Positions 26,041 to 62,396 of a stretch of 64,000 nt of DNA are shown here, piece by piece. The stretch comes from Centroscyllium fabricii. Taxonomy: Eukaryota. A model generated the notes under the pieces. That model saw nothing but the letters and a program-made list of their open reading frames with translations, did not search any database and was not told the DNA's origin. Position 1 is the first letter of the stretch; the number at the start of each line of letters is the position of its first letter. A program made the position numbers and the translations under genes. Location of the stretch: assembly GCA_051313645.2 (NCBI GenBank), contig JBNRSN020000005.1, positions 264,740,001 to 264,804,000 of the forward strand. The letters run 5' to 3'.

Positions 26041-26077
26041 AGTTCTGAAGAAAGGTCATCGACTTGAAACGTTAACT
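26041..26077 (+). ncRNA. Minimal hammerhead-ribozyme-like motif (family A), intact core
   Basis: AGTT CTGAAGA A AGGTC atc GACTT GAA ACGT T AACT: stem I AGUU/AACU, CUGANGA, stem II, GAAA, palindromic ACGU. Confidence 0.65.
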
Positions 26078-29485: not shown

Positions 29486-29830
29486 TCAGATTGTGTATGG
29501 GAATGGTGTGAATTTTGTGGGCAGGTTGTCCACTGGGTATACGGTGGGGTTGGTTTTCATTGTAGGAGGCCCGTTTAAAAGTTCCCAGTCGCAAGCCCTG
29601 ACCAGCTCCACCGTGAAGATCTTGAGCAGGATCTTGGCAAACTCTTTGCCCACACAGCTCCTGGAACCTCCGCCGAATGGGATGTAGCTGAATCTGCAGG
29701 CATCTTTCTCTGGACAGCCCTCCATGAAGCGATCCGGGTTAAACTCTTCCTTCTTCGAGAAATTTGTGGCTACATCATGTGTGTCACAGATACTGTAAAT
29801 AACATTCCAGCCTTTTGGTATCTGATATCC
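29486..29830 (-). CDS. CYP26A1: CYP26A1 exon 7 (heme-binding motif, stop)
   Basis: tttcag|GGA; GYQIPKGWNVIYSICDTHDVA...FNPDRF...FGGGSRSCVGKEFAKILLK...PVDNLPTKFTPFPYTI*; spliced total 494 aa, all introns phase 0. Confidence 0.97.
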   Translation of the reverse strand, partial: GYQIPKGWNVIYSICDTHDVATNFSKKEEFNPDRFMEGCPEKDACRFSYIPFGGGSRSCVGKEFAKILLKIFTVELVRACDWELLNGPPTMKTNPTVYPVDNLPTKFTPFPYTI

Positions 29831-29904
29831 CTGAAAATGTAATTGACTTGATTATTTTAATGTAATATATTTATCTACAATTTATCACAGTATCAGGATA
29901 GTGG

Positions 29905-30505
29905 GTAGGACATTTAGGACTGAGATTAGGAGAAATTTCTTCATTCAGAGAGTGGTGAACCTGTGGAATTTGCTACCACAGAAGGCCGTGGAGGCCAAAT
30001 CACTATATATTTGAGGAGATAGATTTCTTGACACCAAAGGCACCAAGGGATATGTGGAGAAAGCAGGAATATGGTATTGAGACAGAGGAACACCCATATG
30101 ATCATATTGAATTTTGGATTTTTTCTCCCAAATTGGCTACTGGGTTTTTTATCTAGTTTTTTGCCACTCCCAGGTGATCACATGGGTTTGGGTGGGGTGG
30201 AGAGTTAAAATAAAATTGAGGTTAGGATCAGATCGGCCATGATCTTGTTGGGTGGCAGAGCGGGCTCGAGGGGCCGATTGGCCTGCTCCTATTTCTTATG
30301 TTATGTTAGGACGTTTGAATATGTGGGGTTACGGGGATAGGGTGGGATACGTGTCGGTGCAGGCTCGATAGGGATCGAGGGATATGGGGACAGGGCAGGG
30401 ACGGGGTACTGGGTTTGGATGATCAGCCATGATCTCATTGAATGGCGGAGCAGGCTCGAGGGGCCGAATGGCCTACTCCTCCTCCTATCTTCTATGTTTC
30501 TATGA
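29905..30505 (+). mobile_element. Stack of CR1 3' ends and a SINE tail in CYP26A1 intron 6
   Basis: Repeated GGGCCGAATGGCC..CTCCT motifs and TTCTATG/TTCTTATG tails. Confidence 0.75.
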
Positions 30506-31528
30506 ATGGTGGAGCAGGCTTGAATGGCCAACTCCTACTATTTTTCTGTTTCTACAATCCAGCACTTTTTATAAATTTGGTTGTAAGGATTGTGATATTT
30601 ATACTATCCTGCACCTTAGAATTATTTCACTTCTAAATATAAGATTTCTCTTTTTTTTAAATGTCTGATAAAAAATGTCTGATAAATTAGACGACTGTAC
30701 CCAGGTCATTCCTGATACCTCGAGTGTGTTATTGGAGCCATATGCAGTCCCCATTAGTCGGATGCGGGGTCTAAAGGATGGGCATGGAAGTGGCTGCGAA
30801 TTAATTATCCGATGTTATCGGCCTCTTAATGTAAATGACCTTATGAACTCTTGCTGTCCAGAATCTTCCGATCGTCCAGTCCATCGTTTAAACATAAATG
30901 GGTTAAATCAAATCACGTTCACCGACACCCAACCACCCCCCCCCCCCCCGCCCAATATCTGGACCGAAAAAGCCGGAGGGATGGAACTATAGGCTCGATA
31001 GGGATCGAGGGATATGGGGACAGGGTACTGAGTTTGGATGATCAGCCAGGATCTCGTTAAATGGCGAAGCAGGCTCGAGGGGCCGAATGGCCGCCTCCTG
31101 CTCCTATTGTCTCTGTTTCTATGTAACTAGACCTCCAGTGCCATAGTGCTGCCGGTGCTTCCTCCTGGGCACTCGGTGTCCTCTCAATCGCTGAACTAGG
31201 AGCGGTTAAATTAGATTCTCATGTTGCTTGATTCTGCAGAGGGATTAGTTTGTAGCTTGCGACGGCTGCAGGAATGCCTAATTGTTGCTCATGCAAAGTG
31301 GTGGAGACCCGTTTAAAACCTATTGGATTGTTTCTGATTTAGCGATATTTACGATTACTAATTAAACATTACAAAATCTGGAGGTGTTGTAAAATCAATT
31401 GTGGGATCATTCTGATTTTTTTTTCTAAATGTGCACAAGGCATTGCTTTAGGGTGACTGCTGTAAAGGTTTCAGACGGCTCCAATGTATTACAGAACGCT
31501 TATTTCCAACTCTCAAATTTCCGCTTAC

Positions 31529-31684
31529 ATTTAACACGAAAGTCTTTAGGGCCACGCGGAATCCTCCGGGGACCGGGGGACTGAGTCGAAGAGTTTCTTT
31601 GATGACGCTTCCGGTATACTTAAGTTGTTCCAGGACTTCAATGGTGATTTGTTTGTTCTCTTTAGCGTCGCTGCTCAGTAATCC
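31529..31684 (-). CDS. CYP26A1: CYP26A1 exon 6 (K helix ExxR)
   Basis: ttgcag|GGA...AAT|gtaagc; GLLSSDAKENKQITIEVLEQLKYTGSVIKETLRLSPPVPGGFRVALKTFVLN; 156 nt. Confidence 0.95.
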
Positions 31685-31844
31685 CTGCAAATCCATTGAG
31701 AAGCCACATTTAAAACCAAAAACAAAATCGGGGATTGGTGCTTAAATTACTCTCAATTTGCTGCTAATGGATTTTAGTTGTTGCAGCCCAGGGAATCGGA
31801 TCAAGGGGGATGAATGGGGGGCAGGGAATCTGCGCTGTCTTTAC

Positions 31845-31979
31845 CTGCTCCTGCAATTCCCCTCGGACTTTCTGCAGCACCGCAGGGTGCAGGGCCAGGA
31901 ATGTGACCAGGGAGGTGGCGGTGCTGGCTGTCGTCTCATGTCCTCCGAACAGCAGCTCGGTGGCCGATTCCTTCAGCTC
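31845..31979 (-). CDS. CYP26A1: CYP26A1 exon 5 (I helix)
   Basis: ttgaag|GAG...CAG|gtaaag; ELKESATELLFGGHETTASTATSL...ELQEQ with the CYP26A-type GGHETT; 135 nt. Confidence 0.95.
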
Positions 31980-32348
31980 CTTCAAATCAAAAGGCAGAGA
32001 AAACAAAACACACATCAGGCACGTTCCGAGAGCGCCGGCCCCGAACCTCCTGGATCACTGCGCTTGAAGATGGTCCATGATTCAAAGATTGGCACTGCTG
32101 CGAATGCTCAGCAATGTGCAGCCACCGGGTAGCAGGACCCTGCGCGCACCGAGCCGCTGGCATTTCTCATCTGGACATTGCCGCAGGACGAAGGAAGCCG
32201 GAGTGAGACTCCTCACCGGAATTTAAAGAGAGAAAAACATTTAACCCGTCGTTGCTTTAAAAAATGGTGTATGTTAAGTTTGTTCAACTGCCATGTAAAA
32301 TCAGGAGTTGCGTTAGTTATTGAGCAGTGGTTTGGCTTTGGGGAAGGT

Positions 32349-32782
32349 GCAGTGTTCTGGGGCAATGGGCAGGAGTGGACAGTGTTGTGGGGCAATGGGC
32401 TGGAGTGGGCAGTGTTGTGGGGCAATGGGCAGGAGTGGGCAGTGTTGTGGGGCAATGGGCAGGAGTGGGCAGTGTTGTAGGGCAATGGGCAGGAGTGGGC
32501 AGTGTTGTGGGGCAATGAGCAGGAGTGGGCAGTGTTGTGGGGCAATGGGCAGGAGTGGGCAGTGTTGTGGGGCAATGGGCAGGAGTGGGCAGTGTTGTAG
32601 GGCAATGGGCAGGAGTGGGCAGTGTTGTGGGGCAATGAGCAGGAGTGGGCAGTGTTGTGGGGCAATGGGCAGGAGTGGGCAGTGTTGTGGGGCAATGGGC
32701 GGGAGTGGGCAGTGTTGTGGGGCAATGGGCGGGAGTGGGCAGTGTTCTGGGGCAATGGGCTGGAGTGGGCAGTGTTGTGGGG
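32349..32782 (+). repeat. 30-bp G-rich minisatellite (~14.5 units) in CYP26A1 intron 4
   Basis: Unit GCAGTGTTGTGGGGCAATGGGCAGGAGTGG; variants gtag and tgagc recur with 120-bp spacing. Confidence 0.97.
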
Positions 32783-32822
32783 TGATATTCGGGGGAAGGA
32801 AGGGGTCGGGCAGTATCTTTAC

Positions 32823-32972
32823 CTGTAAACGCAGGGGTTGCTCACTCTTTTCTGAGTGTTCGATCAGAAGCTGCAGAGCATCTTTGAACTGGCCCGTGGC
32901 CTCGCGTTTCGCCACCTTTTTCCTGATGTTCTCTTCGATTTGTGCGTGGATTACATTCCTCGCCTTCAGCCC
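32823..32972 (-). CDS. CYP26A1: CYP26A1 exon 4
   Basis: gacag|GGG...CAG|gtaaag; GLKARNVIHAQIEENIRKKVAKREATGQFKDALQLLIEHSEKSEQPLRLQ; 150 nt. Confidence 0.94.
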
Positions 32973-33130
32973 CTGTCACCAAATAACGGCACACTCTGTC
33001 ACCCCGCTATTGAAAGGTTACATTGTTCAGCCTCCCGTGCTTTAGTCACTATTGGAGCAAAAACCTGCTCTGCCTTTACCCAGCCCCAGTCCCCTCCCTC
33101 CCTCCTTGTAATCTTAACTCCGGATCTTAC

Positions 33131-33415
33131 CCGGTATAAACCGCTGAACGGCACGTCGATGGGCAGTGAGAAGAGGTTGCGAATCATTTCCTCGAAAGCC
33201 TCGATGAGCTGCTGTTGTGTCTGCGGGCTGGTCTGCGTGGGTTCGAAGCCCAACAGGATCCGCATCGCGATCCCGAACATGAGGCGCTTCATCTCGGGGT
33301 AAACCAGCACACACGGCCCGCTCTCCAGCCAACGCCTCAGCCCGGCCCGGATCTCCTCGCCCATCACTGGGATGTAGTTCTCCAGAGCTTCTCGGGAGAA
33401 AGCTTTCAAAATCAC
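33131..33415 (-). CDS. CYP26A1: CYP26A1 exon 3
   Basis: atag|GTG...CGG|gtaaga; VILKAFSREALENYIPVM...LFSLPIDVPFSGLYR; 285 nt. Confidence 0.96.
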
Positions 33416-33599
33416 CTATTCCAAAACAATCCGATTAAACCAGCACCTAGTCCCCTCTTTCAGCATTAAAAATAAACTCAAAACAGTTTTGTATTTTAAA
33501 AAAGAACTTAAAAGACACCACTTTTAAAATTAATGTAATATGCAACTGACTATTAAATGAGCACTTTGGACTCCAGCACTGCCTAATTGACCTTTTCTA

Positions 33600-33909
33600 A
33601 TCATAGAATCCCTACAGTGCAGATAGAGGCCATTCGGCCCATCGAGCCTGCACCGACACATATCCCACCCTATCCCTGTAACCCCACATATTTAATCCCC
33701 CTAACACTAAGGGTTAATTTATCCTGGCCAATCAACCTAACCCGCACATCTTTGGATTGTGGGAGGAAACTGGAGCACCCGGAGAAAACCCACGCAGACA
33801 CGGGGAGAATGTGCAAACTCCACACAGATAGACACCCGAGGCTGGATTTGAACCCGGGTCTCCAGGGCTGTGAGGCAACAGTGCTAACCACTATGCCACC
33901 GTGCCGCCC
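33600..33909 (-). mobile_element. HE1-type tRNA-derived V-SINE, full length
   Basis: Minus: GGCGGCACGGTGGCATAGTGGTTAGCACTG (A box)...GGTTCAAATCC (B box), V-domain TGTGTGGAGTTTGCACATTCTCCCCG, CR1-like tail GATTCTATGA. Confidence 0.88.
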
Positions 33910-34050
33910 CAAATCCTGGGTTAATGCCAATAATCCTGCCGGATTTCCTATTCTTACTCTTAGTTCAGTCTGAGACTCAAAGGCTAGAAGTTTGCAAACT
34001 GCAAGTCGCTTGATAGGCGAAGTCTTTTAGACAGCAACCTTTCTCGGTTA

Positions 34051-34256
34051 TAACACCAGAAGCCGCTGGAGCAACTCAGCAGGCCCGGCAGCATCGGTGG
34101 AGAGAGAAACAGAGTCAACGTTTCCAGTTCTGAAGAAAGGTCATCGAGCTGAAACGTTAACTCTGTTCCTCTCTCCACCGATGCTGCCGGGCCGCCTGAG
34201 CTGCTCCAGCGGCTTCTGTTGTTTCGGATTTCCAGCACCTGCAGTATTTTGCCATC
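34051..34256 (+). mobile_element. Fold-back Penelope-terminus insertion (family A) in CYP26A1 intron 2
   Basis: About 68-bp inverted arms around the hammerhead-like core (34126-34162); 17-bp TSD gcaacctttctcggtta at 34034-34050 and 34257-34273. Confidence 0.85.
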
Positions 34257-34303
34257 GCAACCTTTCTCGGTTAATGGGCCAGATGTGGCCAGTGTGCACT
34301 CAC

Positions 34304-34528
34304 CCTCTTCCTGTGTTTGTGCTCGGCATCGTGCAGGCTGGACAGGCAGCCGGCTCCCAGGATCGTCCTGACCGAAGCGGGCCATTGCACCGACACCAGC
34401 TTGTGTTCACCCAATAAAATGTGCTTCACATTCTCCGCTCCCATGATCCGCACAGTCGGGCTCCCGAAAAGATGCGTCTTGTAGATGTGGCCGTACTTCC
34501 GTACTTTCATCTTCAGGAACTTGTATCT
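34304..34528 (-). CDS. CYP26A1: CYP26A1 exon 2
   Basis: cacag|AGA...AGG|gtgagt; RYKFLKMKVRKYGHIYKTHLFGSPTVRIMGAENVKHILLGEHKLVSVQWPASVRTILG...HKHRKR; 225 nt. Confidence 0.96.
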
Positions 34529-35166
34529 CTGTGAATGGACACAGGTTAATGGGTTAGGTGCGCTTAATACTGGGCGGGGGGACACACTTCTGGGGGTTAG
34601 TCTTCAGGTTGCTGTATAATTTGTGCCATTTCTAAACCTGCGGAAGAAAACGTTTGAAACCGCGTTTCCAATATTTCCGCTGCAGCTTGATACAGTGATA
34701 GCCCCGCGTCAAATTTCCAGCCAGGCTAACCTGGCGCACGGTGCGAAATCAATCAGTTTGGCTGCCATTCAAACAAGCCAAGTTGCTGTTGTTTTCCGCC
34801 CAGCGACGCTTGCTGTTAAATGCCTGCTCTCTTATTAATGACGACACCCTGGGATACAATTCTCAAAGATACTGGACGCCTCAATCAGAGCTGAGCAGTG
34901 CCTACCTGTTTTCTCTCCCACGATTGCAATTTGTTCTGATATGATCGCAAAATACTGCCGATGCTGGCTGACCTGCCGAGTTTCTCCAGCGTTTTCTGTT
35001 GTTGTTTTTGCAATGTGTTCTCATCCTCTCTTTTCTAAAAAGACATTTTCTATTCTTATTGTCAACTTTACCGCTTCGCTCTCGGAGGAAGGCGCGGATT
35101 TTGACATGGCCCCCTAAATTTGGGGGGAAAAAGTCGGGTTATTTTGAATTAAGTGTACCTCCTCAC

Positions 35167-35355
35167 CTGCAGGACCAGCTGGAGAGTCTCTCCCAGGAAC
35201 GGCAGCCCCATGGAGCCTGGAGGGAGGGGGTTTTCACAGCTGGGGTCCCTTCCACTTATACAGTAAACTTCCCACAGCTTCACCGCGGCCAGGAAGAGCG
35301 ACAGCGGCAGCACGAAAGTGCACAAGAAAGTAGCACAAAGTGTAAATAAGACCAT
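35167..35355 (-). CDS. CYP26A1: CYP26A1 exon 1 (coding part; N-terminal anchor and proline-rich hinge)
   Basis: ATG at 35355-35353; MVLFTLCATFLCTFVLPLSLFLAAVKLWEVYCISGRDPSCENPLPPGSMGLPFLGETLQLVLQ|gtgagg; 189 nt. Confidence 0.96.
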
Positions 35356-35883: not shown

Positions 35884-35964
35884 TAAGAAGTCACACAACA
35901 CCAGGTTATAGTCCAACTGTGTGACTTCTTACATTTGTCCACCCCAGTCCAACACCGGCACCTC
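35884..35964 (+). mobile_element. Collapsed family-B fold-back remnant upstream of CYP26A1
   Basis: taagaagtcacaca...tgtgtgacttctta plus the family tail gtccaccccagtccaacaccggcacctcc. Confidence 0.75.
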
Positions 35965-43700: not shown

Positions 43701-44193
43701 CAGTATTTTGCTATCGAATTAAACATCGGGTGACATTTCAGTGAGGGAGTGTCGCATTGTCGATCTCTTGGCCCTATTTGAAGAAGAGCAGGCCAATTCT
43801 ATCAGGAGTCCTGGTCAATATTAATCCCTCAGCCAACATCATTAAAATAAAATAAATATCTGGTTGTGTATTTCATTGCGTTTGGGAGCTTGCTGTGCGC
43901 AAAGTGACTGCTGCTTTCCCCCGCATTACAACAGTGACTACACTTCCAATCTACTTCATTGGCTGTAAAGCGCCCGGAGGTCGTGAACTATAAATGCAAA
44001 TTCTTTCTTTAATTCCAAACACAATGTTCACACTACTGTGGATAGAGGGGTCGGCGATAATCTTGTAAGTATCGTATTGAAGAAAACGCAATGCTGGCAC
44101 TAGACGGACAAGATTGTCTAATTTACCTCGAAGAACAAATTGTCAGTTAAGAGATTCAGGTAGAGTGATTATCCGTGGCTATTAAACAGAAGC

Positions 44194-44373
44194 AAGAAGT
44201 CACACAACACCAGATTATAGTCCAACGGTTTTATTTTAAATCACAAGCTTTCGGAGCGCTGCTCCTTCCTCGCCCGAAAGCTTGTGGTTTAAAATAAAAC
44301 CGTTGGACTATAATCTGGTGTTGTGTGACTTCTTGCATTTGTCCACCCCAGTCCAACACCGGCACCTCCACAT
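44194..44373 (+). mobile_element. Fold-back Penelope-type terminus insertion (family B)
   Basis: About 70-bp inverted arms; 12-bp TSD ttaaacagaagc at 44182-44193 and 44374-44385; tail tttgtccaccccagtccaacaccggcacctccaca. Confidence 0.82.
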
Positions 44374-49860: not shown

Positions 49861-50229
49861 TTATTCTTTTATGGGGATGTTATTCCCTTTTCCATCCATG
49901 CGATGAAACCGAACCTTCAGCCCATCGACAGGGTGCACAACCGGGACAGTTTGCATCTTGGGGTAGACGGTGCTGGCCAGCTCCCAGCGCGCTGTGCTGC
50001 TCAGTTCCATCGCCAGTGTTTTGAGGATCACCTGTGCTAGCTCTTTCCCTATGCAGCTCCGAACACCCCCTCCAAAGGGCAAGTAATTGAATCTCCCCGC
50101 TTTGCTCTCGTCCCGCTCGGGTCCAAACCGATCGGGGTCGAAAGTGTCTGGGTTGAGATAGACGGCGGCCGTCTCTTGTGTATCACGAATGCTGTATATA
50201 ATACTCCAGCCTTTGGGAATCTGGCATCC
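49861..50229 (-). CDS. CYP26C1: CYP26C1 last coding exon (heme-binding motif, stop)
   Basis: ttcccag|GGA; GCQIPKGWSIIYSIRDTQETAAVY...FGGGVRSCIGKELAQ...TARWELA...MQTVPVVHPVDGL...IKE*. Upstream exons not found in 55286-64000. Confidence 0.93.
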   Translation of the reverse strand, partial: GCQIPKGWSIIYSIRDTQETAAVYLNPDTFDPDRFGPERDESKAGRFNYLPFGGGVRSCIGKELAQVILKTLAMELSSTARWELASTVYPKMQTVPVVHPVDGLKVRFHRMDGKGNNIPIKE

Positions 50230-53200
50230 CTGGGAATCAGACAACGCACATTAGTTGCTTGAGTTGTGTCATTTGAAATTGCAGTAAATACAGTATAAAA
50301 CTTGAATGAAAGGTACACCGAACTAAACACCAACATACAGTGACTTCTTCCTTTATTTGCAAATAACGCGTTTCATTAAAACTCCTGCTTAGGTTCCATT
50401 TAAGTTACTAGCCAGCAGTTATTGCGGATAACACAATGTATTGATGAACACATCAACCACTTACATTTCAGTAGTGTTCCTGTTGGGAGAGAAATCTTCA
50501 AAGCATTTTACAGGACAAAGGAAAACAATCCGAAGGGAGAAAGATTTGGGAAAAGAGAGGGCAACAGTACTGTCCAAAAGAAGGGCTTCTAGACTTTTAA
50601 AAGCAGGGAAGGAGGTGGAAAGGCTGAGGGATTCGAGGCGTGAGTTCCAAACTGCGGGCACACAGTGGCTAAAAAAGTACCCACTTATGGTAGGGTGCAG
50701 GAAGTAAGCTAAAAGGAGTGAGCCAGAGTCAGAGAAGCGGAGGGCGTGTGTGATGACCAATGGTCAGAGGAGATCACTGAGCGGTGGTGAGAGGGAGGCG
50801 TGGAAGAATCTTGAAGTCAATTTGTTGGGGCACAGGAGTTTGCCAAGGAAAGGGGATTATGGCAGTGAGGACGCTGCCTCTGGTGCTCTGAATGAGTTGT
50901 AGAAGGTGGAAGAGGGGAGGCCTTTAAGAAGAGTATTAGAGGAGAGGCCAAGCTTGAGGTGATGGATTACAGTTTCAGCAGCAGTGAGGGTGGAGACCAA
51001 ATCATGTTTTAGAGGTGAAAGAAAGCAGTCTTGATAACTGATCAGCTGTGTGGACGGAGATTAAACTTTTGGGCCAGCATTACGTCAAGGGAAATCATAT
51101 TTATTTTTGATAATGATGGTTTCTTCACAATGTTCTTCCCCTTTCTCCCGCTCCACTCATGAAGACAGTGTCTCCTGCTGGGGTACAGTCCAACAGCAGC
51201 AGGCACCTTCAGGTACCTCATCATTCTTCATATGTAGGCCTAGACAATAATTATTGTCAAGCTATTGGACCATCACAAGCCAGCTCGATCTTGTTCTCAC
51301 TCAACTTCCATACATGCATACTTTCCAACAGAATGACTCTATAGGAACCAGGAATTGGAGCACGGGCTCCCATTTTCTCACTCCCCATTCTTGGAGCACC
51401 GAGGCCAATTGTTGTACTCTTACTATTACCCTGGCTGAAAACAACTGATTCAGACCAGATGGGAAATGAACCTGGGACCGTCTGCATGGCTTACTGCAAC
51501 TACAACTGGACCATCATTACAGGGGAGAGGGAATTAATTATGAGTTTTTAAAGAAAATGATAATGAATAATGCTGTGGGTGAGTTCTGTGTATCTGGCTA
51601 ATGGATTTCAGATACTGTACCTGTAATCACATGAAGATGCTGGACATTTTGAAAGCACATGCAGACATTAGGCAGCGCACCAGCTCAGAAACCGATTATT
51701 TCAACTAAGCAAGAGCTGATGGATGCTCCAACGGCTCAAGGAGTTCATGCAGTGATTAGCTAAACTCTACAGATCAGGAAGATTCCATGACATGTAACAG
51801 GTCAGGTGAACTCGGCTGGGGGTGGGGGGGGGGTGATATTGGTGGTTTTTTTTGTCAGCCAGACTTTGGACACATGTGGAAACCCTCAATTGTCACGCTC
51901 AATAGTCTACAGTCCATACTGAGAAATCCCGTTGCTGCCTGACCTGCTGAGTATTTCCAGTATTTTCTGTTTTTAAGTCTAACTCCTTGATTGGACCTCA
52001 GCATATAGATGTGTCAGTGGGATCTGGGATTTTTCTAGTAACCCTTCAAGCTGAGCTAGGTGGCCCTAGCTGGTCAGGAGAGAAAGAGTTTTTGATGGAC
52101 TGCACATTTTCTCCCCACATAGACACATCCTATGCATCTAAGCCCAAAGAACTCGGGTGCAGGTTGGCAGAACCAAGGCCCAGTGGCCACCAAGTATGCA
52201 ACAAGAATACCACTGGAGTTTAAGATGGTAAAACTGTGCAGTTTACCAGCTTAGAACATTGTTACTCTTTCCCTGCTTGACCAGCTAGGACCACCTAGTT
52301 CAGCTTGAAGGGTTACTAGAAAACTCCCAGTGTTTTTGGGTCGGTGCGGTAGATCTGTCAAGGCGAACCTGGACAGATCGCAAGTTCCAGGTTTCTGCGC
52401 ATGCGCAGCACATGTGGAATCCCGGAACTTGCAGGGCATTTTGGAAGGTTTACACCGCCATCGACACCATAATTTCAGGCCCAATGGTTCAGGTCGATGA
52501 CCTTTCATCAGAATTCAGTATTTGCAGCATCCTCTGTTTTTATTTCAAATTTCCAGCATCCGCAGTATTGTTTTAAGGAGGTAGACTTGTTGCTGAAACA
52601 CCTGGAGGACATAGAAACATAGAAGATAAGAGCAGGAGTAGGCCATTCGGCCCCTCGAGCCTGCTCCGCCATTCAATGAAATCATGGCTGATCATCCAAA
52701 CTCAGTACCCTATTCCTGCTTTCTTCCCATATCCCTTGATCCCTTTAGCCTTAAGGAATATATCCAACTCCTTCTTGAATATATTTAATGAATTGGCCTC
52801 TACTGCCTTCTGTGGTAGAGAATTCCACAGGTTCACCACTCTCTGGGTGAACTATTCTCTCTGACTGTGGACTACCTGGCTCAATATCAGATTTAGGAGT
52901 CCATAGAAGTTCAACTCAGTTCTAATCTCCATTTACCGTGTGGGTCATCTTGGATCAATATAAATTCTGCTTTTCCCCATTCCCTAGTCATTAGGAAACT
53001 GACAAGAAATCCTTGCCAGGCAGACAGCGGGTACCAGGGTCTCTTCCTGAGTGGCATCATTGGCAATACAACTCTGGAGGTTTCCGCGGCTCATCTGCCA
53101 AGGTTACGGCGGACCAGCGGGAGAACCTATGGTGTATTTATGAGTGTAGTTTAAATACCCAACAATGTTCTGATTAAATTTGTGGCAGTGTCTGCGCCTC

Positions 53201-53709
53201 CAAGTGCCCGATATTTCGCTATAGTTAAAACCTGGGGCCAAATCTAGAGGCCACTTGGATGATTTTTGCCGGGATGCCTCTTTTTGTACACATTGCGAGG
53301 CAATGCTCTGACAATGGATTTCGATATTTATTATTGCAAACTCTTAAAAATATAACATTTCTGTATTTTAACTGACACGGCCATGCTTGCGGTTCATGTC
53401 CGGGGGTAAGATACCTCGAGCAGACAGGCGTGTTTGAACGTGTTCATCTTTAGCTCTTTATTTTAGCTTCATTCATTGGGCTGGGTTTACACTTTCAGTT
53501 TCACTGTGGGCCCCATTCTGCCCTCCCCGGGAGACACCCCCCCCCTCTGCTCATTGCGGGTGGGGAAGGCAGGGATTTTATAATAACAGTGAAGGCTAAA
53601 TACAACTGAAATGAAAATATCCGTCTAGTCATTAAAATTGAATTGAACTGAATGATACCGTGCCCACATTCGCCTGGTGATACTGGATGATTTTGCAAAC
53701 AAGAATACT

Positions 53710-54091
53710 TGTTGAAACATATAAAATTCTAACAGGACTGGACAGACTAGATGCAGGAAGGATGTTCCCGATGATGGCGGAGTCCAGAACCAGGAGTCCT
53801 AGTCTAAGGATAAGGGGCGAGCCATTTAGGACAGAGATGACGAGGAATTTCTTCACCCAGAGAGTGGTGAACCTGTGGAATTCTCTACCACAGAGGGCCG
53901 TAGAGGCCAATTCATTAAATATATTCACGAAGGAGCTGGATATATTCCTTAAGGCTAAAGGGATCAAGGGATATGAGGAGAAGGCAGGGACAGGGTACTG
54001 AGTTTGGATGATCAACCATGATCTCATTGAATGGCGGAGCGGGCTCGAGGGGCTGAATGGCCTACTCCTGCTCCTATCTTCTATGTTTCTA
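53710..54091 (+). mobile_element. CR1 LINE 3' fragment
   Basis: ETYKILTGLDRLDAGRMFP...RNFFTQRVVNLWNSLP; (TTCTATGT)n tail. Inverted relative at 52609-52849. Confidence 0.85.
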
Positions 54092-54634
54092 TGTAAAAGG
54101 AGAGTTAAATTTAAGGTAATTGGCAAAAGAACCAGATGGATGATGAGGAGAACTATTTTTACAGAACGAATTGTTCTGATCTGGAATGCACGGCCTGAAA
54201 GGATGGTGGAGGCAGATTCAATAGTAACTGTCTGCCTACAGGGACCATAGCAATTTACCGTACAGAAAGTGGCCAATCGGCCCATCATGTCTGTGCCTGG
54301 CCAAAAAAGAGCGATGCAGCCTAATCCCAGCTTCCAGCTCTTGGTCCCTAGCCATGTAGGTTGCAGCTTTTCAAGTGCATATCCACATACTTTTTAAATG
54401 TGATGAAGGTTTCTGCCTCTTCCGCCCTTTGAGGCAGTGAGTTCCAGACCCCCCAGCACCCTCTGGGTGAGAAAAGCTTGAAAAGGCAACATTTAGGGGG
54501 GCGTAGTGTAACTAATTGGATCACTCTTTCAAACAGCCGGCACAGGCACGCTGGGCCGAATGGCCTGCACGATTCTGATTCTGTCACTAACTGGTGGGAT
54601 GGAAGCGCTCCTGCCACGCGATATTGCTACTTAC

Positions 54635-55285
54635 ATTCAGTTCAAAGGTCTGTAGCGCTGTCCTGTAGCCCCCCGAGACCGGGGGCAGAAGCCTCAGCAC
54701 CTCCTTCACCACACAGTCCAGATAGCGCAGGCGGCTGAGAGTATCCAGGCTCAGGTATCGCTGGCAGTCGCAATCCCGGGACAGCTGGCCCGCCTCAGGC
54801 TCTGGCCCGGGGGACAAGGCTTCCGGGCACTCCCGATCTCCAGTGAGGAGGGGCTGACAGCGCTCCTTATCCTGGATTGTGCTGTCTTGGTTGATGCGGA
54901 TTTGCTGGCACTCGTTATCCCGGACCAGTTTACCTATGGAGTTGGCGGATTGAAGCCAGCCCTTGTCCCGGGTTAAATTCTCTTGGGTGAAAGACCGCTG
55001 GCACCCTTCAGCCCAAGTCTGTTTGTCCCGGGTCACCGAGTCACGCCGGCCGTCCGGGTCCTTGTTTCCAGTGTCCGGGGAGAGCTGGCCGTCCTTGTGT
55101 GGAGCGGGCTGATCCCGGGTTGTGAGGGGCTGATTGCACTGGCAATTGCGGACTAACCCGTGCTGCTGCAGCTCCTGCCTGACTTTCTCCAGGACCTGGG
55201 CGTGTTGCAGCAACAGGAGCACCAGGGATGTGCTGGCACTCGCCGTGGTGGAGAAAGCGGCGAAGATCAACTCAACCGCAGATTC
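54635..55285 (-). CDS. CYP26C1: CYP26C1 penultimate coding exon (I-J-K helices with long insertion)
   Basis: atccag|GAA...AAT|gtaagt; ESAVELIFAAFSTTASASTSLVLLLLQH (C1-type, unlike B1 DGTLELIFAAY)...YLDCVVKEVLRLLPPVSGGYRTALQTFELN; 651 nt open; lies next to CYP26A1 as in human. Confidence 0.92.
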
Positions 55286-55684
55286 CTGGATATATAAAAA
55301 GAGAGGTGTCGAGATAAATGACAGACTGCTGGAAGGAGGAAAAGGCTGTAATCCCACCGCAGACACTGGATCAAGCCCAGAAACGATTAACTAGTTTGGA
55401 GCACAATTCATCTTTGAACTTTTCCCTGTTTGGAAAATTGCCCAAACCATGACAATACAGACACATAAATCGATACAAAGTAAAAGGATACTCAATAGAT
55501 CCGTTTTAACCCCATTTAAAACGTGTTTATGTAATATAAGTTTTATAAATGTACTACTGAGAGTATCCTGTCGGGGAGCATCACCGCCTGGTCTGTTAAC
55601 CATGATGTGGAGGTGTTGGACTGGGGTGGACAAATGCAAGGAGTCACACAACACCAGGTTATAGTCTAACAGTTATATTTGAAA

Positions 55685-55721
55685 TCACAAGCTTTCGGAG
55701 CGTTGCTCCTTCATCAGGTGA
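55685..55721 (-). ncRNA. Minimal hammerhead-ribozyme-like motif (family B), intact core, sense in CYP26C1 intron
   Basis: Minus strand: TCAC CTGATGA A GGAGC aac GCTCC GAA AGCT T GTGA. Confidence 0.7.
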
Positions 55722-56041
55722 AGTGAAGAGATGCACATAGGCACAGCATATATAGTCAGAGAACAATGCTAGATGATTACAGGTAATTTTTCATTTTATT
55801 TTTTATTGCTTTGTTTTTTGTTTTTCATACAGCTTGTGCAACATTTGACCTCTTGTGACCCCACCTCATTGTTCTTTGATGGAATGTTTTGCTGACTGAC
55901 CTGTTTGGACACCATTTACACCTATGATTGCGGTGATTATTTCTCAGCCGAGGTGTGATAAAGAGCAGTTAGAAAAATTACCTGTAATCATCTAGCATTG
56001 TTTTCTGACTATAATGCTGTGCCTATATGCATCTCTCCACT

Positions 56042-56078
56042 TCACCTGATGAAGGAGCAGTGCTCCGAAAGCTTGTGA
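56042..56078 (+). ncRNA. Minimal hammerhead-ribozyme-like motif (family B), intact core
   Basis: TCAC CTGATGA A GGAGC agt GCTCC GAA AGCT T GTGA. Confidence 0.7.
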
Positions 56079-56149
56079 TTTCAAATAAAACTGTTGGACT
56101 ATAACCTGGTGTTGTGTGACTTCTTACATTGGTATATTAACAGCATTAA

Positions 56150-56597
56150 ACAAGACCGTAGGGCCCTGCAGAGGGTAGTACGGACAGCACAATGTACCAC
56201 CAGGTGTGCACTCCCTAACCTGCAGGATATCTACACCAGGCGGTCGGTGCATGACTAAGGCTAAGAAGGTCATTAAGGATCCTAGTCACCCAAACAACGA
56301 CATCTTCTCACTGCTGCGGTCAGGAAAATGCTACCACAGCAGTAAGACCAACACAGAGAGGCTTAGGAGGAGCTTTTATCCCCAAGCCATCCGGATCCTA
56401 AATGAAGACGCTACCAAGGGTCGGGATACTGCTCCCTGACGGTTTAATGTCTTTTTCTTCTTGTAATTATTAATTATTATTTGTATTTATTGTTATCCGG
56501 AGAGCACAGACATGGAACTTGCGATTAAGCATTTCACTACACTTTGTACATGTATAATGATGTATGTGACAAATAAAGTAAACTTGAAACTTGAAAC
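56150..56597 (+). mobile_element. Rex1/Babar-type LINE 3' end, different subfamily
   Basis: RALQRVVRTAQ...IKDPSHP...SFYPQAIRILN; AATAAA plus (GAAACTT)n tail. Confidence 0.75.
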
Positions 56598-57573
56598 CAT
56601 AAGTGTATTAGTTTAAAATATTGAAATGCCTCCCTATTAAGTCTAGTAGTTAATGGCCGTTCATCAGGGAACTGTTTGTTCCAACAGACCCGACAACTCC
56701 AGGTTGATGAAGTTTTATCAAAGTCTCCCTTCAATGTTGTCCTCGATTATTAAACAGGAAGCTCCCGTTAAAATGGCCGGCCAGTGGAAGGAAGGCGGAG
56801 TTCAGGAGCTGGTCCTTCCGCTGGACACACCACATGCTGATGTCAGTGAAATCTCCAACAATGGGAAGGAACTGAAATAACAACAGAAAATGCTGGAAAA
56901 ACTTAGCAGGCCAGGCAACATCCGTGGAGAGAAATAGAGTCAACGTTTCGGGTTCAGACACTTTTTCAAGACTGAAGCAAGAAAATGAAAGAGGTAGGAA
57001 GGCCGGGGGAGCTGGGAGAGAACAAAAGAGAAAAGAGAAGAGATAACAAAGAGAAGAGCTGACGGTTGTCACAGCTCAGGGATCATCAGCAGTTGAATGA
57101 TGATACTGTGGCTCACTTGAGATTAAAAAGAAGTTCAGAAATAAAATTCATAAAGTTTGTTGAGCTTTTTTTTAACCATAACTGTTTCACGCGGTGCGTC
57201 CACTGGTGCAAAGTCGGCAGTATTATTCTGCTCCTATAAACAGGGGAGTTCTTCCTGCATCTTGGCCAACAATTATTCCTCAACCAACATCAGCAAAATA
57301 GATGATCTGGTCATTATCACAGTGCTGTGTGTGGGAGCTTGCTGTGCATAAATTAACTGACACATTTCCTATATTACAACAGTGACTGCAATTCAAAAAA
57401 TATTTAATTGGCTGTAAAGTGCTTTGGGACATCCTGATGTTGTGAACAACCTATAGAAAAGGCAAATCGTTCTTTTCTTTCTATAGCATTAGTGCAGCAC
57501 AAAAAAACCACCACTCCAATACCAAATGTGTAATAAATTGATCCAATTGACAGACTTGCCTCTAGCCTCTCTC

Positions 57574-59180
57574 CCTTCATAGGTAGTCCCTCAGAACCGA
57601 GTATGACTTGCATCCACATTAAAAATGAGTTCTCAGATGACTGATGAGTCCTATGCGGGACCTACAGAGTCTATCACAGGTGGGGCAGACGATGGTTGAA
57701 GGGGTGGGTGGGTGAGGTACTTGGGTTGAGGTGCGCTCCTTGTGCTGCCTGCGCTTGGCTTCCGCTTGCTCCCAGCGAAGAGACTCTAGGTGTTCGGCGC
57801 CTTCCCGGATGCTTCTCCTCCACTTTGTGCGGTCTTGGGCCAGGGATTCCCAGGTGTCAGTGGGGATGTTACACTTTTTCAAGGAGGCTTTGAGGATGTC
57901 CTTGAAGCGTTTCCTCTGTCCACCTGGGGCTCTCTTGCTGTGCCGGAGCTGCGAGTGGAGCGCTTGTTTTGGGAGTCTCGTATCGGGCATGTGGACAATG
58001 TGACCTGTCCATCGGAGCTGATCGAACGTGGTCACAGCTTCGATGCTGGGGATGTTGGCCAATGGATTTGCAGGATATTGGGGAGGCAGCGTTGGTGGTA
58101 CCTCTCCAGTGCTTTGAGGTGCCTGCTGTACATGGTGCATGTCTCTGAGGCATACAGCAGGGCGGGTATCACTGCTGCTCTGTAGACCATGAGCTTAGTG
58201 CCAGGCTTGAGATCCTGGTCTTCAAGCACTCTTTTCCTCAGGCGACTGAAGGCTGCACTGGCACACTGAAGGCGGTGTTGGACTTCGTCGTCGACGTCTG
58301 CCCTTGTTGACAGTAGGCTCCCGAGGTATGGAAAATGGTCCACGTTGTCCAAGAGCTTATCGTGGATTTTGATAATCGGGGGGATGTACATAAGAACATA
58401 AGAAATAGGAGCAGGAGTAGGCCAATCGGCCCCTCAAGCCTGCTCCGTCGTTCAATAAGATCATGGCTGATCTGATCCTAACCTCGAATCTACTTTCACT
58501 TTCCATCCCACCCGAACCCATGTGATCTCTCAGGAGAGGTGAAAAACCAGATAAAAAACCCAGTGGCCAATTTGATGGAAAAAATCTGGGAAATTCCTCT
58601 CCAACCCATCTAGGCGATCGAAACTCGTCCAGGAGATCACTCTGGCCCTGAATTTCCTGCAGAACCTACCTTCTGTAAGAGGTGACCAGGCCACACAGCC
58701 CCCGGGCCCGCTCTGCCACCCACAGGATCATGGCCGATCTGAACCTAGACTCACGTCCACTTACCTGCCTGCTCACCGTATCCCCCAATTCCCTTTACTT
58801 CTAGGAAACTGTCTATCTCGGTTTTAAATTTATTCAATGTTGTAGCTTCCACAGCTCTCTGGGGCAGCAAATTCCACAGACCTACCACCATCTGAATGAA
58901 GAAGTTTCTCCTCATCTCAGTTTTGAAAGGGCAGCCCGTTATTTTAAGATTATGCCCCCTAGTTTTAGTTTCACCACCATTGGGAACATCCTCACTGCAT
59001 CCACCCGATCAAGCCCCTTCACAACCTTATATGTTTCAATAGGTACTGTGTGGCGGGGGCAGGTTGGTAGAGGATCGTTGTCTTACGGATGTTTAGTGTA
59101 AGGCCCATGCTCTCGTGCGCTTCGGTGAAGGTGCTGACGATGGTTTGGAGTTTGATCTCCGAGTGAGCGCAGACGCAGCC
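57574..59180 (-). mobile_element. RTE (BovB-like) LINE interrupted by a nested CR1 (about 58390-59042)
   Basis: VDHFPYLGSLLS..DDEVQHRLQCASAAFSRLRKRV, LRWTGHIVHMPDTRLPKQ, CPTCDRLCRSRIGLISH; RTE frame resumes at 59043-59180 (CAHSEIKLQTIV..GLTLNIRKTTILYQP). Confidence 0.85.
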
Positions 59181-60290
59181 TCTCTCCACTGTGATCGTTT
59201 CTCTATTTTATTGGCACTACTCTGGTCAGTGTTTCTCTGAAGGTCCCTTCTAAGTCTCTACACCCTCTTCCTCCTCTCCACATCCAAATCAAGACTCATG
59301 GCACAGTCTCCTACTCAAACTCATTCTTTCCCACAACCGCAAAAATCACACAACTCCTGGCTTCCTTCAGTCTTGCCCTCCTGCGACAATCTTCAGGCTT
59401 TTAAACCCAATGTTGGTGTCATCTAACCTAACCACTACTTCCTGATTTATACTCACCTTGGCCATCGTTCCTCAGTTTGGTTTTCAATTTATTTAAAAAG
59501 TTAGCTCCTTTCCTCCCCACCCTTATGTATTCCATTTCCACAACAAGTACATTAAAGCTAATTAAAGCTTGAAAAGCTTTAAAGTATTGAAAAGCCAGTT
59601 ATGATGTTCTCACATGATTTTTAGTTGTTTTTCATATAATATATAATTTTTTTTTGAAATGACTGTTTGGGAATACTAGCAGTCAAATGCTTGACAGGTT
59701 GGTATGGCATCCCACTGTTCACCATTTTCATGCAGCTACTAACTTTTTTGTTTAAGTCTTGACTGAAATAGTGGATGAAGGAGTGATGTACAAAAGCATT
59801 AAGCATTTATTCAGCAGGAAATTCCAACTTATTGTGAGCAAAATGTTAGCATTAGCACAGATGCTCATAGCAATGATACACACCAGTGTGTAAGACCCAG
59901 GGTAATACAATAGTTAATGCTGCTGTTATCATTTCTGAATTTCAATAAACCTATACTTTCTGGTAGGTTTGTTCACTCCTACTCCCCTGAGCGCTCTCGC
60001 GCACTGGAAAGGAATGAGACCAATTTATCCTGGTTAAGTCACATTACAACATTTTTTGTATGATTTATATTTTTTTAATGTACAGTGCCATTCTGCACTC
60101 ATAATTCATCAGGGGCAATATGTCAAAAATCATTTAATATAATGCTGCTTTTCCTCCTGTGAAGCACCATGGGATGTTTTACTACGTTAAAGGAGCTATA
60201 CATAACTATACGTTGTTTTTCCTAACCCACAAGCTAAATGATCTGTTGTGTACCACTAGTCTGAAACTTGTACTCAATCAACACCTAATG

Positions 60291-60424
60291 CTGATGAAAG
60301 GTCATTGACCTGAAACGTTAACTCTGTTTCTCTCGCTCCACAGATGCTGCCTGACCAGCTGAGTATCTCCAGCATTTTCTGTTTTTATTTCAGATTTCCA
60401 TCATCCACAGTATTTTGCTTTTGT
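60291..60424 (+). mobile_element. Family-A Penelope terminus starting at CTGATGA
   Basis: CTGATGA A AGGTC att GACCT GAA ACGT T AACT...; flanked by acctaatg(c/t)tgatg direct repeats (60283-60296, 60425-60438). Confidence 0.8.
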
Positions 60425-60592
60425 ACCTAATGTTGATGTTTGGTTAGAATATTGGTGACTACATGTGACGTGTCATAAAAATAAATGATTATGCTGTTCC
60501 TGAACCAGCCCCAGATGATAAAATGCTAAATACATTGAAAGATGAACCACAACTTAATTTACATATTCAATCTGATGCCATTAAATAGGTTG

Positions 60593-60789
60593 TAAGAAGT
60601 CATACAACACCAGGTTATAGTCCAACAGTTTTATTTGAAATCACAAGCTTTTGGAGCGTAGCTCCTTCCTCTGAGGAAGGAACTGCGCTCCGAAAGCTTA
60701 TGATTTCAAATAAAACTGTTGGACTATAACCTGGTGTTGTGTGACTTCTTACAATTGTCCACCCCAGTCCAACATCGGCACCTCCATAT
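60593..60789 (+). mobile_element. Fold-back family-B insertion
   Basis: Palindromic arms meeting near CTGAGGA (60671); 14-bp TSD cattaaataggttg at 60579-60592 and 60790-60803. Confidence 0.85.
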
Positions 60790-61436
60790 CATTAAATAGG
60801 TTGCACATCCAGTTTCAGTGGGTTTAACCGAGTCATCGCTGGTCTGTGCTGCGATGGCAATAAAGTGCTTAAACTGGCCTCAGGGCCTCTGGGTTATGGA
60901 GGGGGAAGAACGCAGCCAGGGCTCCTACTCCAGATTTCTATCCAGCAACCCCTGCAGGAGGCTTGTGTATAGACTTTGAGTAAGAACAAGATTGAGCGTA
61001 ACTGTGATGCCCTTTATTGTTGTATAGTCTGCCAACTTTCACAGTCATGGGTCATGTGAATAATGGTCACTTGGGTGAGGGGAGCCCTTGGAACTTTACC
61101 TTATCAAGCTGTCAGGACATGAGGAAAAGGGAGTCAATTGGTAAAAAAGGGTCCACATTCTATATAGCCGCAAAAGTTTAAATTTGCTAGTGCAGAATAT
61201 ATATATATATATACATACATATATTTGTAAAAAATGAGTTACTACTGTCATATACTAGTCATTTGGCATCATGTCAATTGGAATCAGAATACAAGTAATA
61301 GGTATTCCATCCACCATGCTTTCAAACTCTGCCTGCTGCAAATTTCTCTTTCCTCCAGTCACTACCTATTTAACTCCTCAACCAAATTCTCCAGCATTCC
61401 ACCTGTACAAACTGGTAAGTTTTAAAGCTGAACCTG

Positions 61437-62396
61437 AACACGGGGGCCCTTACCCTGAACACGTGGGCCCCACAAGGCTGTGTGCTGAGCCCCCTCCTCT
61501 ACTCCCTCTTCACTCACGACTGTGCGGCTGTCCATGGCTCCAACACGATCATCAGGTTTGCGGACGACACCACGGTGGTTGGCCAGATCACCAACAACGA
61601 TGAGTCAGCCTACAGGGATGAGATCCAGCACCTTGTGGGATGGTGTGCCGACAACAACCTGGCACTGAACACCAAGAAAACTAAGGAGATCATAGTGGAC
61701 TTCCAGAAGACTGGAAGCAGAAGACACACCCCCATCTTCATCCAAGGGGCTGAGGTGGAAAGGGTGTCCAGCTTCAAGTTCCTCGGGGTCCACATCTCGG
61801 AAGACCTCTCCTGGTCACTAAACACCTCTTCTTTGATTAAGAAGGCCCAACAGCGCCTGTACTTCCTAAGGAAGCTGAAAAAAGCCAAGCTGTCATCCGG
61901 CATCCTCTCCAACTTCTACCGCTGCACAATCGAAAGCATACTGACAAGCTGCATCACAGTCTGGTATGGAAACTGCACCATCTCGGACCGGAAGGCCCTG
62001 CAGCGGGTAGTCAAAACTGCCCAATGAATCACCGGCACCCAGCTACCGTCAATTGAAAGCATCTACCTCAAATGATGCCTACGGAGGTCTCTGAACATTA
62101 TTAAAGACCCCACACACCCCAGCCACAGTCTGTTCACCCCCCTGCTCTCCGGGAGACGCTACAGATCAATCCACACCCGCACGACTAGATTCAAGAACAG
62201 CTTTTTCCCCAGGGCTGTCAGCATCCTGAACTCTAACAAAAAACTCTGGTATCTGCACACCTGAAATGTACTTTACTGTATGCAATTGTATGTAAATTAT
62301 TTGCACTACTCTTGGGAGCGGCGAGTCTTCGTTTCGTTGTATTGTACTAGTACTCTGCAATGACAATAAAACTTAAATTGAATTGAATTGAATTGG
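61437..62396 (+). mobile_element. Rex1/Babar-type LINE 3' fragment
   Basis: GAPQGCVLSPLLYSLFTHDC...RFADDTTVVG...LQRVVKTAQ; AATAAA plus (AATTG)n tail. Confidence 0.88.

Follow-up and report, generated by a model that had tools for sequence, protein, structure and literature searches.

The window, by which we mean the whole 64,000-nucleotide stretch of Centroscyllium fabricii DNA that was analyzed, holds part of a CYP26C1 gene. Searching the window and 80 kb beyond it with tblastn placed six CYP26C1 exons on the minus strand, four of them past the window's end, and the last exon is 90–95% identical to shark proteins named "cytochrome P450 26C1-like". Intron 4 is 18.4 kb long, running from a donor at 73706 (window numbering continued) to an acceptor AG at 55287–55286. 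Within it, ≈315 nt upstream of the acceptor, sits a fold-back element with a hammerhead core in each arm. The initial annotation had assigned this element to a CYP26C1 intron, and the exon mapping and protein identity confirm the assignment: the gene lies on the minus strand, and the intron is the fourth. Our literature search found no report of a ribozyme in a CYP26C1 intron.

Two further features of the gene neighborhood deserve mention. Exon 5, of ≈650 nt (54635–55285, minus strand), codes for an insert of ≈100 residues in which RD-C-Q-like motifs recur. Of the chondrichthyan, coelacanth, lungfish, and frog models compared, most align through it and 3 of 11 split around it, so that the alignments suggest either that the loop is long and variable or that the segment is alternatively removed. 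A second CYP26 gene (29510–35334, minus strand) lies in tandem, downstream of CYP26C1, to which it is 41–53% identical; from synteny, we presume that it is CYP26A1. The features of the locus are as follows, PLE denoting a Penelope-like element.

77945–77742, 76363–76118, 75483–75208, 73862–73707, 55291–54635, and 50232–49879, minus strand: CYP26C1 exons by tblastn (window numbering continued)
54635–55285, minus strand: CYP26C1 exon 5, the next exon after the PLE stub in the pre-mRNA
55559–55588, plus strand: interrupted host repeat, left piece (LINE ORF fragment)
55589–55600, plus strand: left target-site duplication of 12 nt, matching the right copy at 10 of the 12 positions and exactly in the last 5
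55601–55633, minus strand: one-sided PLE tail, ending at the ATG 55603–55601, which is the ORF start in full-length copies
55630–55792, minus strand: inverted shorter pLTR copy (left arm), sense in CYP26C1 pre-mRNA
55685–55721, minus strand: minimal hammerhead core with loop II AAC, predicted cut after 55689, sense in CYP26C1 pre-mRNA
55787–55792, no strand: inversion junction, 4–6 nt common to both copies (microhomology)
55787–56133, plus strand: 5′-truncated PLE 3′ UTR/pLTR of ≈345 nt, including a 179-nt spacer and the right arm 55972–56133
56042–56078, plus strand: minimal hammerhead core with loop II AGU, predicted cut after 56074, antisense in CYP26C1 pre-mRNA
56130–56141, plus strand: right target-site duplication, its first 4 nt also matching the element's own end
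56142–56439, plus strand: interrupted host repeat, right piece (end approximate)

Two intact 37-nt cores had been described, one on the plus strand (56042–56078) and one on the minus strand (55721–55685), and both read as described. The core pattern CACCTGATGAAGGAGC-NNN-GCTCCGAAAGCT has exactly two matches in the 64-kb window, at 56043–56073 on the plus strand with loop II AGT and at 55720–55690 on the minus strand with AAC, and none in 100 dinucleotide shuffles of the window. In hammerhead numbering, each core consists of stem I (UCAC/GUGA), C3–A9, an extra A, a 5-bp stem II starting from the G10.1–C11.1 pair, G12–A14, the palindrome AGCU at 15.1–16.1, and U17. The proposed layout of a minimal, dimer-type hammerhead with a palindromic AGCU and a CUU cleavage site is borne out, with all 11 invariant bases (CUGANGA ... 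GAAA ... NUH) and the CUU site present in both copies. The base that follows CUGANGA is A at 56053 in the plus-strand core, where the G10.1–C11.1 pair is present, and such an extra base occurs in 83 of 84 descriptor matches from the window and the fetched loci.

The initial annotation had proposed searches with a descriptor and with Rfam covariance models. Our hammerhead descriptor found 84 motifs in 424,663 bases, a set made up of the window and fetched loci that is enriched for this PLE family and partly overlapping; three of the motifs lie in the window, both cores among them, and the reversed sequence and three shuffles gave no match. In the Rfam scan of 50000–62000, no hammerhead model matched at E ≤ 10; the sole hits were to miRNA models of hairpin shape, each scoring under its gathering threshold.

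Covariation of stems I and II, also proposed, is seen between families. Between this family and a second PLE family, 8 of the 11 stem I and II pairs change on both sides with the core invariant, and 96% of cells pair, versus 19–45% in slid controls, in a set of 10 rows hand-picked from intact matches in which every double change comes from the single contrast of family 1 with family 2. Within family 1 there are only G-U changes and unpaired cells. Judged by sequence, the hammerhead motif is real at the family level, because the second family keeps the core while those 8 pairs change on both sides. The palindrome in place of stem III is AGCU in the present family and ACGU in the second, an unrelated repeat whose minimal hammerhead, with stem I AGUU/AACU, is seen at 26041–26077 (plus strand). 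Similar sequences lie at about 34130 (plus), 52511 (minus), and 60291 (plus); the second family has 3530 candidates in the genome, and PLE ORF matches stand beside 5 of 20 loci.

The inverted arms, 55630–55792 and 55972–56133, align over 163 columns with 93.3% complementarity, 10 mismatches, and 1 gap, and are 179 nt apart; inverted arms had been correctly recognized, but they are slightly longer than the ≈150 bp first given. The right copy, from ≈55787 to 56133, is 93–95% identical to most pLTRs downstream of RT-GIY-YIG ORFs. The inverted copy extends from 55792 to 55601, and its tail has a 6-nt deletion relative to other copies. The element comprises pLTR sequence only, with nothing of the ORF kept past the start codon. 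On the host side, a LINE reading frame gives ESILSGSITAWSVN to the left of the insertion and WYINSIKQDRRALQRVVRTAQ to its right, resuming across it, and contigs of other copies of this host repeat run straight across the insertion point. The interrupted translation resembles an RVT_1/ALKBH8_N ORF at 61419–62024, and we take the LINE to be of the Rex1/Babar type. The stub is one insertion event into an older LINE fragment. A candidate for the empty allele, one contig at single-copy depth (run X3) that skips the insertion, was rejected, since it may derive from a different copy of the host repeat.

The window contains three more fold-back stubs of the same family, at 35884–35964, 44186–44368, and 60591–60792; the latter two have clear 12–14-nt target duplications and arms that meet inside the hammerhead. 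PLEs are known to carry introns, and a long pyrimidine tract at 55805–55832 (plus strand) ending in CATACAG resembles a 3′ splice site in the PLE orientation, antisense to CYP26C1. Just 3′ of the hammerhead, the AATAAA of the family has become AATATA in the CYP26C1-sense arm (55674–55679, minus strand); other CYP26C1-sense copies in intron 4 retain AATAAA, and the change is probably due to chance.

Searching the genome with the arm gave 693 candidates, and the 40 of these that were scored are 97–100% identical, marking the arm as a high-copy repeat. An apparent clustering of the copies' 5′ ends near 55787 was dismissed as an artifact of the query end. Longer copies run upstream into an ORF with an RT and an endonuclease-like C terminus. 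A search by RT protein alone returned 33,893 candidates, of which 146 were scored and 30 loci fetched, one being the query's own locus and two being duplicates of each other. Among these 30 RT-selected loci, 25 have the pLTR hammerhead end, the part homologous to the window beginning ≈105 nt after the ORF stop, mostly with 93–95% identity. The ORF matches RVT_1 in Pfam (E ≈ 1e-9). Pfam made no direct GIY-YIG call on the ORF of this family; the C-terminal domain of the ORF does align with the stretch that Pfam assigns to GIY-YIG in all four homologues tested (E 7e-25 to 7e-15). The arms are the pLTR of a family with an RT and GIY-YIG ORF, and the link to Penelope-like elements drawn in the initial annotation is borne out by this ORF standing next to the same pLTR end at the 25 loci.

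A linker of the CX2-5CxxC form, CHSNLCKTC, precedes the C-terminal endonuclease at residue 752 of the L074 ORF. By the linker criterion of Craig et al. 2021, this sequence points to Neptune or Nematis and not to Penelope/Poseidon, and the linker motif and domain order together make Neptune the likely clade.

The whole element is visible in six additional loci chosen for long open frames (L073–L078). Direct cores lie 3150 nt apart around a 919-codon frame in L073, with an inverted core upstream, and direct pLTR ends lie 3316 nt apart around a 919-codon frame in L074. These six loci form a sister subfamily, with open frames of 836–960 codons from stop to stop, that shares the last 85–100 nt of the pLTR and has a different 3′ UTR; variation in its stems takes the form of G-U pairs, and its loop II measures 3–5 nt. 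In both subfamilies (L043–L078), the first 45 nt after the PLE stop hold a degenerate hammerhead-like motif (e.g., L047:2981–3025), with CUGACG then U, a 5-bp GAGUC/GACUC stem, and GAGU or GAAC instead of GAAA. In the main subfamily, the 44 nt after this motif are 75% like the sequence 3′ of the second family's intact hammerhead (E 2e-4). The degenerate motif may be what remains of an older pLTR, a new end with a hammerhead having been acquired behind it.

Head-to-head inverted pairs occur at 13 of 29 DNA-selected and 10 of 25 RT-selected loci, counts that are lower bounds because the loci are short. For 25 inverted pairs, counted by eye without a shuffle control and with the duplicates L001, L031–L034, L043, and L056 excluded, an 11–19-nt duplication adjoins both ends in 20 and a one-sided tail is present in 22; L014 and L021, both in this set, are probably one insertion duplicated. 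The span between end motifs in these pairs varies from 111 to >3000 nt, and the longer ones hold the PLE ORF. Nine family insertions fall in the 144 kb around CYP26C1, which, if that density were typical, would extrapolate to ≈450,000 genome-wide.

Substitutions outside CpG were counted in 33 family copies found without use of the hammerhead. They affect 3 of 297 core positions (1.0%), 15 of 594 stem positions, and 81 of 3053 flank positions (2.7%), and the CpG positions of the core have changed in 6 of 66 cases; 25 of the 33 copies retain all 11 invariant bases. There is a trend toward a slower core, and in this sample of 33, which has little power, protection after insertion is not significant (core versus flank, p = 0.12; stems, p = 1.0). 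Compared with the family majority, the arms in the window carry 5 and 7 differences, of which a single one is common to both, and this pattern indicates that the two arms drifted independently. The loops AGU and AAC are each one substitution away from the family's AGC. Neither the core and flank rates in the family nor the comparison of the arms gives a sign of selection on the window's copy.

In the CYP26C1 pre-mRNA, the antisense arm comes first and the sense core after it, ≈400 nt upstream of the intron 4 3′ splice site. The minimum-energy fold pairs the arms, at −318.2 kcal/mol versus −260.2 kcal/mol with the hammerhead stems forced, values that, like all our folding energies, are equilibrium predictions for naked RNA; the pairing probabilities of stems I and II round to zero in the predicted fold. 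The initial suggestion that the fold-back would keep the ribozyme off is upheld as a prediction by this 58 kcal/mol penalty for forming the hammerhead stems. A duplex of core and antisense is predicted at −66.3 kcal/mol and the double hammerhead at −16.3 kcal/mol, and for the bare core a stem-swapped dimer (−26.3 kcal/mol) lies below the double-hammerhead fold, making the predicted dimer energy marginal. Two more fold-back hairpins are predicted in intron 4, at −143.9 and −299.5 kcal/mol.

Minimal hammerheads reportedly cleave as dimers, a finding attributed to Lunse et al. Within the gene, the core at 55685–55721 is the family's only intact one on the CYP26C1 sense strand. The remaining family copies on that strand are mutated in the core (60679 and 72739) or are without the 5′ half (76675), which leaves no intact partner in cis, and hence no cleavage is expected. 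The "latent ribozyme" of the initial annotation therefore holds in the trivial sense that the sequence is present in the pre-mRNA; there is no sign of selection on it and no intact partner on the same strand. We found no evidence in these analyses for a regulatory role of the hammerhead in CYP26C1, where the predicted fold holds the core shut and the core is likely no more than an inert passenger.

The intact sense core, its orientation, and its position ≈400 nt before the 3′ splice site would suit a co-opted switch, in which the fold-back holds the ribozyme shut and unwinding lets the core cleave intron 4, either with the PLE protein or by dimerizing in trans, tuning retinoic-acid clearance. 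Many family copies could provide the trans partner, and the available part of a study of the green anole describes PLE hammerheads being turned on by protein in vitro (PMC11167929). We consider such a switch very improbable, however, given that the antisense arm is transcribed first and would cost 58 kcal/mol to open, that the gene has no intact cis partner, that even the bare core is only marginally stable as a double hammerhead, and that the arms have decayed independently. Published minimal hammerheads of PLEs were inactive as monomers and weak as dimers (PMC4209133), and no RNA-seq reads ended at the anole PLE cut site in the portion of that study available (PMC11167929). On a genomic scale, fold-back PLE stubs on the order of 10^5 could be imagined as a pool of masked intronic ribozymes, in which a helicase or the PLE protein opens the hairpin, a trans partner pairs with the core, and host pre-mRNAs, including that of CYP26C1, are cut. 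We give this proposal very little credence. If the cores did cut host pre-mRNAs on unwinding, transposon activity would be tied in a new way to the control of developmental genes and would feed into host gene output, here that of the retinoic-acid-clearing CYP26C1; nothing we found points there.

The hairpin might also act as dsRNA rather than as a ribozyme, its 160-bp duplex being edited by ADAR or diced with a modest effect on exon 5 splicing, by analogy with the inverted Alu pairs of mammals, which affect splicing as dsRNA. The predicted duplex is long and near-perfect and lies 315 nt from the acceptor, and two further such hairpins are predicted in the same intron; yet the hairpin excludes the polypyrimidine tract and the acceptor, and such hairpins are so common in the genome that any effect would be generic. 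Such an effect, which we judge unlikely, would be compatible with the origin of the element favored here. Inverted ends, a target duplication, the absence of an ORF, and high copy number might equally describe an independent non-autonomous element, MITE-like or retrozyme-like, mobilized as a fixed fold-back bounded by terminal inverted repeats. We find this hardly credible: the end-motif spans of the 25 inverted pairs range so widely, with a PLE ORF in the longer ones, the tail stands on one side, the cores lack the tandem arrangement of retrozymes, and junctions vary, none of 29 copies sharing that at 55787–55792. MITE and retrozyme identities were rejected on the variable spans, the one-sided tail, and the non-tandem arrangement of the copies.

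What lies in intron 4 is a real but ordinary PLE stub. It is very probably a single 5′-truncated insertion of an abundant, likely Neptune, PLE, whose back-to-back ends each carry a standard minimal hammerhead and whose core in the pre-mRNA is predicted to be locked in a 160-bp duplex as a likely inert passenger. In such an insertion, the target would be nicked by the GIY-YIG endonuclease, as the published PLE mechanism suggests; reverse transcription would begin near the ORF start, giving the tail, and would halt early, giving the 5′ truncation. A second priming or a template switch at the 4–6-nt microhomology would then write the inverted copy, and repair would duplicate the target. Any role of the ribozyme would fall to the parent's tandem transcript, where it would act as a dimer, probably with protein help. 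During transcription of CYP26C1, the antisense arm would be made first and pair with the sense core as the core emerges, with no cleavage, and the intron would be spliced out together with the hairpin.

The stub and its relatives add a cartilaginous-fish family to the known minimal hammerheads of PLEs, and the locus is a clean example of a textbook inverted insertion, with tail, microhomology, and target duplication. The family is also a resource: its near-intact tandem copies, its very many junctions, and the existence of two hammerhead families whose palindromes differ could serve tests of PLE priming models and of dimer specificity. We found no specific report of Penelope-like hammerhead fold-backs in sharks in the literature, and the family may already be catalogued in Repbase/Dfam. 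Hammerhead retrozymes are reported in one sampled chondrichthyan in the available part of a preprint that may already list this family (bioRxiv 10.64898/2026.07.22.740005). The non-LTR retrozymes described there are tandem units, each with a complete hammerhead, whereas the copies here are inverted.

The closest match among known ribozymes is with the minimal hammerheads of PLEs. Their published conserved features include the palindrome and an additional base between positions 9 and 10.1, their consensus is CUGANGAH, and dual motifs occur 100–700 bp apart on opposite strands (PMC4209133). The present cores share with them CUGANGA plus the extra base, the G10.1–C11.1 pair, a short stem I, the palindrome at 15.1–16.1 without stem III, AU-rich flanks, and the opposite-strand pairing. 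The same G-C-U-U cleavage region is seen in the painted turtle row and the same UCAC/GUGA stem I in the lamprey row of that study, whose Fig. S3, of 56 rows, includes no cartilaginous fish and lacks the present family (PMC4209133). Two features that had been called unusual prove ordinary on this comparison: the extra A is a published conserved feature of PLE hammerheads, and the inverted placement recurs in the published opposite-strand pairs (PMC4209133) and in what the available parts of two other studies describe as the typical PLE insertion, a 5′-truncated copy with an adjacent inverted pLTR, a one-sided tail of 30–40 bp, and a target-site duplication (Craig et al. 2021, PMC8557442; Arkhipova et al. 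2013, PMC3846280).

The complex insertions that endonuclease-bearing PLEs form, as far as the available parts of these studies describe them, are likewise head-to-head inverted copies with a junction overlap, a target-site duplication around the whole unit, and a tail at one end that reaches into the ORF start, although the duplications in the rotifer examples given there are 8–10 bp and those here about 11–16 nt. The Neptune clade, in the accessible text of PMC8557442, resembles this family in its C-terminal GIY-YIG with a CX2-5CxxC linker, absent in Penelope/Poseidon, and in its vertebrate host; the microsatellite targeting hypothesized there for Neptune is not apparent in the flanks of this family's inverted pairs. 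The Poseidon element PAc of the green anole is also comparable. In the available part of that work, its tail marks the start sites of reverse transcription, cleavage by its ribozyme required protein, and insertion in vitro did not depend on the ribozyme (Frangieh et al. 2024, PMC11167929). PAc belongs to a different clade, and its ORF starts inside the hammerhead, as described there, whereas the ATG here lies ≈85–90 nt after the predicted cut; in both elements, the pLTR hammerhead stands close to the ORF start.
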